IMG/VR virus record: IMGVR_UViG_3300025924_000033 | Direction: 5' to 3' (one strand) | DNA from: a virus | DNA: 50,279 nucleotides | In this document: positions 47,737 through 47,826 of the stretch, in pieces | Layout: every line of letters starts with the position of its first letter | How positions within the stretch are numbered: the first letter of the stretch is position 1 | Notes under the pieces: generated by a model | What the model was told of the DNA's origin: nothing | What the model saw: the letters and a program-made list of their open reading frames with translations, nothing else | The model's database searches: none | Position numbers and translations under genes: made by a program

Positions 47737-47826
47737 TCGGCCTGGCGGGATTCGAACCCGCACTCTGCGCTTATCTGGCGCTTCCCGCTTATAAGACGGT
47801 CGGTCTTACCATTAACCTACAGGCCG
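47737..47826 (-). tRNA. class II (long variable arm) tRNA with anticodon UAU (loop CTTATAA); identity uncertain (Leu-UAA-like scaffold reading AUA?)
   Basis: CGGCCTG-TA-GGTT-AATGGTAA-GACC-G-ACCGT[CTTATAA]GCGGG-var(AAGCGCCAGATAAGCGCAGAGT)-GCGGG-TTCGAAT-CCCGC-CAGGCCG-A. Confidence 0.5.

Follow-up and report, generated by a model that had tools for sequence, protein, structure and literature searches.

A phage tRNA(UAU) gene with a GAU-bearing, anticodon-like extra arm, and a conserved family of similar tRNAs

The viral record IMGVR_UViG_3300025924_000033, a stretch of 50,279 nucleotides that was analyzed as a whole and is called the window here, encodes on its minus strand a 90-nt tRNA with the anticodon UAU and a long extra arm. 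Which amino acid would such a tRNA bring to AUA codons, and what might the extra arm contribute? A sequence-only reading of this locus had described a class II tRNA of the Leu/Ser/Tyr architecture and had offered two explanations, a Leu-type body that reads AUA or a novel tRNA-Ile(UAU) with an exceptional variable arm. The evidence collected below favors the second. Its most informative feature, which that reading did not mention, is the loop of the extra arm, centered on GAU.

The gene is a real phage tRNA gene. ARAGORN predicts a minus-strand tRNA-Ile(tat) that spans 47735-47826 and has its anticodon at position 34. The Rfam tRNA model RF00005 aligns in full to 47737-47826 (-) with 60.3 bits (E 1.1e-11), above the gathering score of 29 bits that defines membership, and assigns a 19-nt insertion to the variable region. 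Read directly from the sequence, the 5' part is CGGCCUG UA GGUU AAUGGUAA GACC G ACCGU CUUAUAA GCGGG AA, and the 3' part is GCGC CAGAUAA GCGC AGAGU GCGGG UUCGAAU CCCGC CAGGCCG A. The minimum free energy fold is exactly the five-helix cloverleaf implied by this division, at -35.6 kcal/mol (z = -2.8), and only one of 200 shuffled controls folded as well. The acceptor stem, in which CGGCCUG pairs with CAGGCCG at 47738-47744, has 7 bp that include C1-G72 and C4-G69, so that acceptor and T stems form a branch of 7 + 5 bp. The D arm has a 4-bp stem with U12-A23 and an 8-nt loop whose A15 pairs with U48. The anticodon arm, designated hairpin 1, has the loop CUUAUAA at 47789-47795, with UAU at 47791-47793, and contains U33, A37, and C29-G41. 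Two nucleotides, CC at 47736-47735, lie just 3' of the gene, and a full CCA is not encoded. The length, coordinates, loop register (U33, UAU at 34-36, A37), and discriminator A first proposed for this gene all agree with ARAGORN, Rfam, and the sequence itself, and re-folding by software, named beforehand as a possible source of refutation, leaves the UAU register intact in ARAGORN, Rfam, and the minimum free energy fold alike.

The extra arm, designated hairpin 2, is 15 nt long and, with 4 bp and a 7-nt loop, as large as an anticodon arm. The loop reads CAGAUAA and matches that of tRNA-Ile(GAU), CUGAUAA, except for an A at the equivalent of position 33; GAU occupies 47773-47775. The closest relative of the window tRNA, at 77.8% by blastn against all fetched loci, is at locus L311, whose tRNA-Ile(GAU) has the anticodon arm CGCGC-CUGAUAA-GCGCG; window hairpin 2 differs from the inner 15 nt of that arm at position 33 alone. 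Because the 5-6 nt that follow it look like an ordinary 44-48 loop, the hairpin can be placed between nucleotides 43 and 44, which sets it apart from the classical variable arm of class II tRNAs. This 3' linker is 5 nt in the type A sequences described below, the window tRNA among them, and 6 nt in types B-D, as against 1-3 nt in 196 Leu/Ser/Tyr tRNAs; for the Leu controls taken separately it is 1-2 nt in 68 of 74. Topologically, nucleotide 26 connects hairpin 1 to the D stem without a break, and nucleotides 44-48 connect hairpin 2 to the T stem. Of the class II architecture first assigned to this tRNA, then, the extra hairpin stands, while a variable arm of the Leu/Ser/Tyr type does not, given the 5-nt 3' linker and the 7-nt GAU loop.

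Pattern scans place this tRNA among many similar ones; counts from them are lower bounds, taken among the matches listed (120 rows per scan). A scan of IMG/VR for CTTATAA followed after 20-36 nt by GGTTCGAATCC (the T loop) listed 120 stretches, 99 of which are tRNA-Ile(tat) genes of 85-99 nt according to ARAGORN. Fifty-eight of 74 unique sequences have an extra hairpin whose loop is centered on GAU (CAGAUUA in 29, UAGAUUU in 6, the CAGAUGG type in 10, and others), and the 58 are essentially all the real tRNAs among the 74. Because that scan forced UAU, a reciprocal scan of IMG/VR specified the extra loop and T loop only (CAGATTA, 10-16 nt, GGTTCGAATCC) and left the decoding loop free. Long tRNA(UAU) genes accounted for 121 of its 136 stretches, and most stretches missed by ARAGORN also have CUUAUAA in hairpin 1. 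Decoding loops found when unforced include CUUAUAC, UUUAUAC, CUUAUAU, and CCUAUAC; UAU is kept in all, and A37 with rare exceptions. Over 51 aligned members, U34-A35-U36 is invariant and A37 nearly so, even where the scan had left them free, the AGAU of the extra loop is invariant in the family alignments, and all members couple a UAU decoding loop with an N-A-G-A-U-N-N extra loop. The control set, 196 unique Leu/Ser/Tyr tRNAs encoded at the same loci, has extra loops of 3-6 nt, with a 7-nt loop in one and GAU anywhere in the loop in two. Since the two scans and the control agree, the coupling of UAU with the AGAU loop is specific and close to absolute.

At least 128 distinct members were parsed, from viral contigs, cultured cyanophages, Lactobacillus phages, bacterial chromosomes, and tRNA arrays. 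All 128 have seven acceptor pairs and a 5-bp T stem, A73 is present wherever the GAU arm is, and CCA is encoded in many. Five features are common to the family: A73 and the 7/5 branch, a decoding loop in which UAU is followed by A37, a variable loop of 5-6 nt, and a hairpin 2 between nucleotide 43 and that loop. The signature of this hairpin is that of the tRNA-Ile(GAU) anticodon arm, with C-G at the 29-41 and 31-39 equivalents and the loop C-A-G-A-U-N-A. As working criteria we used a U33/UAU/A37 decoding loop; an extra hairpin of 4-5 bp with a 7-nt N-A-G-A-U-N-N loop and with C-G at the third and first pairs from that loop; a following variable loop of 5-6 nt that ends in the Levitt partner of nucleotide 15; a 7/5 branch; and A73. 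The window tRNA has every one of these sequence and structure features. A covariance model, R1, built from 51 members with the window sequence excluded, scores the window tRNA at 85.3 bits (E 7e-22, model positions 1-91) and the other tRNAs of the window at 47.4 bits or less, the best of them, tRNA-Leu(UAA), falling 38 bits below the UAU tRNA. The window tRNA is almost certainly a genuine member of a conserved tRNA family.

Covariation upholds the proposed structure. Aligned, 45 type A sequences have 97% of cells in standard pairs and compensatory changes in all five helices, as against 32-50% paired in shifted-register controls of the same alignment. Pairing reaches 100% in the acceptor helix, where each of the 7 pairs shows compensatory changes, and 97.2% in the extra-arm helix, where three of four do. 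RNAalifold found the same five helices de novo in a second alignment. The 15-48 Levitt pair covaries perfectly (A-U in 40 of the 45 sequences, G-C in 5) and, because it does, would be a structural pair rather than a mark of leucine identity. Type A sequences have a class I-like D arm. Types B-D, comprising loci L006, L018, L024, and L003 with their relatives and copies in cyanophages, combine a D arm of 4 bp and a 4-nt loop (UGGU) with an anticodon stem extendable to 7 bp, and they keep the 7/5 branch, A73, and the GAU arm.

Several features point to isoleucine. The determinants of E. coli IleRS, the isoleucyl-tRNA synthetase, are C4-G69, the 12-23 pair, C29-G41, A73, and the anticodon loop (PMC9976931); from that list the window tRNA has A73, A35, U36, A37, A38, C4-G69, U12-A23, and C29-G41. 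The G34 or lysidine-34 that is also required is replaced by U34 in the decoding loop, and the equivalent G is present solely in the extra arm. An isoleucine-type stem accompanies it there. Among 122 unique members, 113 have C-G at the hairpin 2 equivalent of the 29-41 pair, third from the loop, and 101 have C-G at the closing pair, equivalent to 31-39, while the remaining two pairs covary freely. The frequency of C29-G41 is 35 of 126 in hairpin 1 of the same long UAU tRNAs, 21 of 43 in class I phage UAU tRNAs, 25 of 43 in co-encoded tRNA-Ile(GAU), and 11% in all other tRNAs of the loci. We regard isoleucine as the probable identity of the window tRNA.

These features suggest that decoding and identity may be divided between two arms. 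Hairpin 1 would decode the rare codon AUA as isoleucine with no need for TilS or lysidine. Hairpin 2 would give the host IleRS the GAU-type identity signal that hairpin 1 lacks, since ordinary bacterial IleRS recognizes G34 or lysidine-34 and charges UAU poorly: the E. coli enzyme charges tRNA-Ile(UAU) inefficiently, ordinary IleRS needing G34 or lysidine, and in Mycoplasma mobile a change in IleRS, Arg865, was needed for use of a UAU tRNA (PMC3575796). The conserved A in place of U33 would bar hairpin 2 from decoding. Because hairpin 1 joins the D stem via nucleotide 26 and hairpin 2 joins the T stem via 44-48, either could in principle stack under the D stem, which would let hairpin 2 take the anticodon-arm position during aminoacylation. 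We assign a probability of about 0.5 to the reading that this is a functional tRNA gene for an AUA decoder with a GAU-type identity arm for IleRS. For a direct interaction of IleRS with hairpin 2, the odds seem to us slightly worse than even. The proposal in its widest form, in which IleRS reads the GAU hairpin and the ribosome the UAU hairpin, the two swapping position under the D stem, and in which the resulting portable decoder, independent of TilS and of the host, was spread across phyla by mobile elements, is speculative and we would not bet on it.

A number of observations weigh against the identity-arm reading. We infer both the amino acid charged and the contact between IleRS and hairpin 2 from sequence comparison. 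On tRNA, class Ia synthetases come in at the D-arm side, and the long variable arms of class II tRNAs point away from them; the contact would for that reason require the arm-swap geometry. The position-37 equivalent of hairpin 2 is U, not A, in most members, and t6A37 is a determinant for E. coli IleRS (PMC9976931). Class I tRNA-Ile(UAU) without the arm is also common in phages, making up about one third of UAU tRNAs in the same IMG/VR slice (long to class I roughly 66:34 among the matches listed). Since these class I forms occur, sometimes beside the long form, a phage UAU tRNA can do without the extra arm: six phage contigs (L013, L051, L093, L100, L102, L159) each encode a long UAU tRNA together with an ordinary tRNA-Ile(UAU) of 72-78 nt, a combination that the identity-arm hypothesis does not explain. 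Finally, a site at which another protein binds would account equally well for the A at the 33 equivalent and the two invariant C-G pairs.

That last possibility leads to the rival that survives best, an isoleucine-specific AUA decoder that takes its identity from its body and A35-U36-A37, and whose extra arm binds some other factor (a modification enzyme, a processing nuclease, an elongation factor) or shields the tRNA from a host anticodon nuclease or phage-induced tRNA decay. It would suit the strict A at the 33 equivalent and the usual U at the 37 equivalent, neither typical of genuine tRNA-Ile(GAU) loops, as well as the existence of armless class I UAU tRNAs in phages and the stem determinants already present in the window body. 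It has more difficulty with a motif that lies in the exact anticodon register of a 7-nt loop and is always GAU, the cognate isoleucine triplet, and no other, and with an Ile-type C-G pair at the 29-41 equivalent of hairpin 2, a constraint that hairpin 1 has lost. The partner would also have to be universal, because the hosts of the family are as distant as cyanobacteria, lactobacilli, Gammaproteobacteria, and Acidobacteriota. We consider this explanation unlikely, though a serious contender.

Decidedly improbable, in our estimation, is a tRNA-like RNA that takes no part in translation, such as a decoy or regulator that titrates an anticodon nuclease or IleRS, or a toxin-antitoxin or mobile-DNA element as proposed for allo-tRNA(UAU). 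Most allo-tRNA(UAU) may indeed be unused in translation (Mukai et al., PMC5389517), some phages with the long form also have a normal UAU tRNA, and the window holds several other aberrant tRNA-like genes. Yet the features that serve translation are all conserved in the family, namely the 7/5 branch, A73, the T loop, G18G19, the Levitt pair, U33 and A37 of hairpin 1, and often CCA, and the gene is in register inside tRNA arrays.

A class II tRNA that accepts leucine, has a mutated anticodon, and would place leucine at AUA in the manner of the nematode nev-tRNA-Ile(UAU) seems to us still less credible. This is the Leu-type body of the sequence-only reading, and one observation does speak on its side: the closest tRNA in the window is the neighboring tRNA-Leu(UAA) at 48024-48110, whose loop CUUAAAA had been read correctly, with 69% identity, an identical T arm, and the same GCGC/GCGC extra-arm stem. 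A73 is present, although it is common to tRNA-Ile too, as is the A15-U48 pair; bacterial LeuRS ignores the anticodon (PMC9976931), and nev-tRNAs provide a precedent (PMC3333845). The Leu-type body nevertheless finds no support, because the D arm is of class I, the 44-48 loop is normal, the 7-nt extra-arm loop is centered on GAU, and isoleucine determinants lie in the body. Neither the D arm nor the position of the extra arm is Leu-like; the UAU anticodon, 5-nt 3' linker, and 7-nt loop all depart from what characterizes class II tRNA-Leu; the covariation of 15-48 between A-U and G-C marks that pair as structural rather than as an identity element; and the family model separates the UAU tRNA from the Leu tRNAs of the window by 38 bits. 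A leucine acceptor would leave the conserved GAU loop and the Ile-type stem unexplained, and chromosomal copies in cultured Gammaproteobacteria would make AUA ambiguous. Least credible by far is a missense suppressor of the allo-tRNA type, charged by SerRS or AlaRS, which would account for a long extra arm together with UAU, the predominant allo-tRNA anticodon (PMC5389517), but calls for a branch of 8/4 or 9/3 rather than 7/5, G73 or U73 rather than A73, and a Sec-like D arm that this tRNA does not have.

Other candidate explanations were tried and rejected. Hairpin 2 is not the true decoding arm: it has A at the U33 site and usually U at the purine-37 site, and hairpin 1 is canonical. Kissing of the two loops was discarded by inspection, as no complementarity is kept between CUUAUAA or CUUAUAC and CAGAUUA, CAGAUAA, or UAGAUUU. 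Recent duplication of a co-encoded tRNA-Ile(GAU) fails because the bodies of the long UAU and Ile-GAU tRNAs are unlike in 38 loci. An extra arm with the cognate anticodon is not a general rule either, since other long phage tRNAs outside the Leu, Ser, and Tyr classes have small tetraloop arms. These small arms, of 2-5 bp with a tetraloop such as GAAA, occur on phage tRNAs that are normally class I (Thr in L010, L029, L038, L068, and L116; Lys in L044 and L186; Trp in L129 and L141; Gly, Glu, and Pro in L146) and are different in kind from the GAU arm.

The coordinates of the UAU tRNA gene and its parts are collected in Table 1.

Table 1. Parts of the UAU tRNA gene, in 5' to 3' order of the transcript, with the basis on which each was placed.
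Feature	Coordinates	Strand	Basis and remarks
Whole tRNA gene	47737..47826	-	90 nt, positions 1-73 plus extra arm; ARAGORN, Rfam, family model
Acceptor stem, 5' strand CGGCCUG	47820..47826	-	Sequence; family covariation
D arm, GGUU / AAUGGUAA / GACC	47802..47817	-	Rfam, family covariation
Decoding anticodon arm (hairpin 1), ACCGU CUUAUAA GCGGG	47784..47800	-	ARAGORN, Rfam
AA linker between hairpins 1 and 2	47782..47783	-	Sequence; 1-6 nt in family type A
Extra arm (hairpin 2), GCGC CAGAUAA GCGC	47767..47781	-	Family covariation, AGAU invariant
AGAGU, 5-nt linker, class I-like variable loop (44-48); U48-A15 Levitt pair	47762..47766	-	Covariation, linker comparison
T arm, GCGGG UUCGAAU CCCGC	47745..47761	-	Rfam, family covariation
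Discriminator A73	47737	-	Sequence; A in every parsed GAU-arm family member

Members of the family occur in cultured phages and in bacteria, mostly without annotation in the former. An unannotated member is encoded by each of the Synechococcus phages S-SRM01 and S-SKS1, the S-SRM01 copy being 100% identical to the common type B sequence, and by each of the Lactobacillus phages LpeD and Lpa804; in phages ENFP1 and 3-521 the member is annotated simply as tRNA-Ile. A scan of bacterial genomes, one representative per species, found 24 members among the first 120 pattern matches listed. The carriers among those matches include about ten metagenome-assembled genomes (MAGs) of Pyrinomonadaceae (Acidobacteriota), on contigs of up to 3.1 Mb; the Gammaproteobacteria Microbulbifer elongatus, Marinobacter nauticus, Vibrio albus, and Cellvibrio; several Alphaproteobacteria; one Planctomycetota MAG; and one Nitrospiraceae MAG. 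Some bacterial copies lie inside arrays of 11-25 tRNA genes. In Microbulbifer and Marinobacter the copy is solitary and chromosomal, amid ordinary genes (GNAT, ChrR-type cupin, HD, aldolase, TetR). Dense arrays of 5-25 tRNA genes within a few kb were seen on MAG contigs and chromosomes at L228, L311, L282, L253, L239, and L295; their hosts are Rariloculaceae, Nitrospiraceae, Pyrinomonadaceae, and Gammaproteobacteria, and both tRNA-Ile(GAU) and the long UAU tRNA are present.

ARAGORN finds 14 tRNA genes and a tmRNA in the window. The UAU tRNA is the last of at least 12 minus-strand tRNA genes at 47735-50226; tRNA-Arg(UCU) lies 3 nt upstream of it, and a convergent open reading frame (ORF) has its stop codon 4 nt away. 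On the phage side of the codon-usage comparison that the sequence-only reading had proposed, AUA turns out to be rare but used: it accounts for 19 of the 656 Ile codons of the window, or 1.3 per thousand codons, in DNA of about 59% G+C. This fits the usual role of phage tRNAs as decoders for codons rare in the host, and the array also holds decoders for other rare codons (UAA, UCU, UAG). A translational role for the UAU tRNA is plausible. Relatives of the window phage were sought by megablast and blastn of the region against GenBank phages, which returned generic tRNA matches alone, and by blastn of all fetched loci against the window, which returned tRNA-sized matches alone; an 1124-aa ORF had no phage match, and the exact tRNA core had no match in IMG/VR. 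No close relative of the phage emerged in GenBank. A promoter and terminator scan of the tRNA array gave nothing above shuffled expectation.

Several neighbors of the UAU tRNA are themselves unusual. The tRNA-Leu(UAA) gene (minus strand) has the extra-arm loop CAAGAA, not CAGAUAA, and a classical short 3' linker, UU. Since its T arm is identical to that of the UAU tRNA and the GCGC/GCGC stem is common to both, the comparison suggests that the two genes may have exchanged 3' halves. At 48460-48547 (-) lies a tRNA-like gene missed by ARAGORN, which scores 40.9 bits against the Rfam tRNA-Sec model (gathering score 47). It folds with a long acceptor and a short T stem, its D stem is 6 bp long and closes a very short loop, and its extra arm has 7 bp. 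The anticodon loop is UUGGAAA (GGA, Ser) and the discriminator G73; the gene looks like an (8/4) tRNA-Ser of the kind found in phages by Mukai et al. 2017. The tRNA-Ser(CGA) at 48183-48274 is Sec-like too, at 37.9 bits. Two adjacent tRNA-shaped genes at 45966-46040 and 46042-46118 (-), both Leu(aag) according to ARAGORN, form clean cloverleafs whose anticodon loops, CAUAAGCAA and CCUAAGCAA, are 9 nt long; they may encode frameshift-type or non-decoding tRNAs. Next to them, at 46121-46192 (-), is a tRNA-like gene with an encoded CCA that ARAGORN calls Tyr(ata). Its anticodon arm, with either 6 bp and a 3-nt loop or 5 bp and the loop UAUAA, lacks a normal decoding loop. At 49904-49978 (-), a tRNA of 75 nt, a class I length, has the anticodon UAG (Leu CUA) and no long variable arm. 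Similar genes occur at L282, L309, L246, and L051, a recurring mismatch of body and anticodon in tRNA arrays.

Elsewhere in the window, an adenylosuccinate-synthetase homolog is encoded at 29562-30929 (+) (Pfam PF00709, E 3e-62; phrog_1211, '2-aminooxy adenylosuccinate synthetase'). We take phrog_1211 to be the phage PurZ family, and since such a homolog is encoded, the phage DNA may contain 2-aminoadenine in place of adenine. The phage tmRNA, at 21662-22022 (+), has the tag peptide ANDNVRVQSNLSAPLQAAA. Two further products are unusual for a phage, a PARP-like protein with WGR, regulatory, and catalytic domains (42473-43897, +) and a 931-aa protein with a major-vault-protein shoulder domain (32837-35632, +). 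The phage also encodes rIIA-like and ligase-like proteins.

Full-text literature searches gave us no description of a tRNA with a second, GAU-bearing anticodon-like arm; subscription journals are mostly outside their coverage, and a prior description is possible. Whatever its mechanism, the family is abundant, with about two thirds of the phage UAU tRNAs sampled, yet unannotated in four of the cultured phages named above, and it spreads over cyanophages, Lactobacillus phages, and soil and marine bacteria. If the extra arm is an identity module, this would be the first natural tRNA to offer its synthetase a surrogate anticodon while decoding with another. Such a module would explain how an AUA decoder on mobile elements could need neither TilS nor an adapted IleRS. 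It would also open an engineering route, in which a grafted identity arm lets anticodon-dependent synthetases charge tRNAs of arbitrary anticodon.

The standard bacterial decoder of AUA is tRNA-Ile2(CAU) together with TilS, in which modification of C34 to lysidine solves identity and decoding at once. It shares with the GAU-arm family its target codon and the need for acceptance by IleRS despite a missing G34. The GAU-arm family is proposed to work without a modification enzyme, its identity being carried in a separate arm. The class I tRNA-Ile2(UAU) of Mycoplasma mobile (Taniguchi et al. 2013, PMC3575796) is closer in that it has A73 and a UAU anticodon flanked by U33 and A37 and needs neither TilS nor lysidine to read AUA. 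It differs in being an ordinary cloverleaf served by an adapted IleRS (Arg865), whereas the GAU-arm family adds hairpin 2 and the host IleRS is presumably ordinary.

A long extra arm combined with UAU is found in the nematode nev-tRNA-Ile(UAU) (Hamashima et al. 2012, PMC3333845). The nev-tRNAs are eukaryotic, however, with Leu-type V arms, are charged with leucine in vitro, and have no reported GAU anticodon-like loop; we rejected membership of the window tRNA among them, its context being phage or bacterial and its extra arm not of the Leu type. The allo-tRNAs (Mukai et al. 2017, PMC5389517) are bacterial or metagenomic, occur in Acidobacteria, a group that also includes carriers of the GAU-arm family, and in others, and have a long extra arm with UAU predominant, but their branches are 8/4 or 9/3, their D arms Sec-like, and their discriminators G73 or U73, as opposed to the 7/5 branch, A73, and, in type A, class I D arm of the GAU-arm family. 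Membership there was rejected as well, since the branch of the window tRNA is 7/5, its D stem has 4 bp and its D loop 8 nt, and its discriminator is A73. Class II tRNAs for Leu, Ser, and Tyr likewise have five helices and a similar length; they differ in having 1-3 nt after the arm and a 3-6-nt loop, where the GAU arm is followed by a full variable loop of 5-6 nt and bears a conserved, anticodon-like loop of 7 nt.

Anticodon mimicry has a parallel outside tRNA. In the E. coli thrS operator, a hairpin in the mRNA leader mimics the cognate anticodon arm and recruits the synthetase. Hairpin 2 is proposed to act in the same way, as a copy of the cognate anticodon arm that would recruit IleRS. The thrS operator is a regulatory element of an mRNA, whereas here the putative mimic is built into the tRNA itself.

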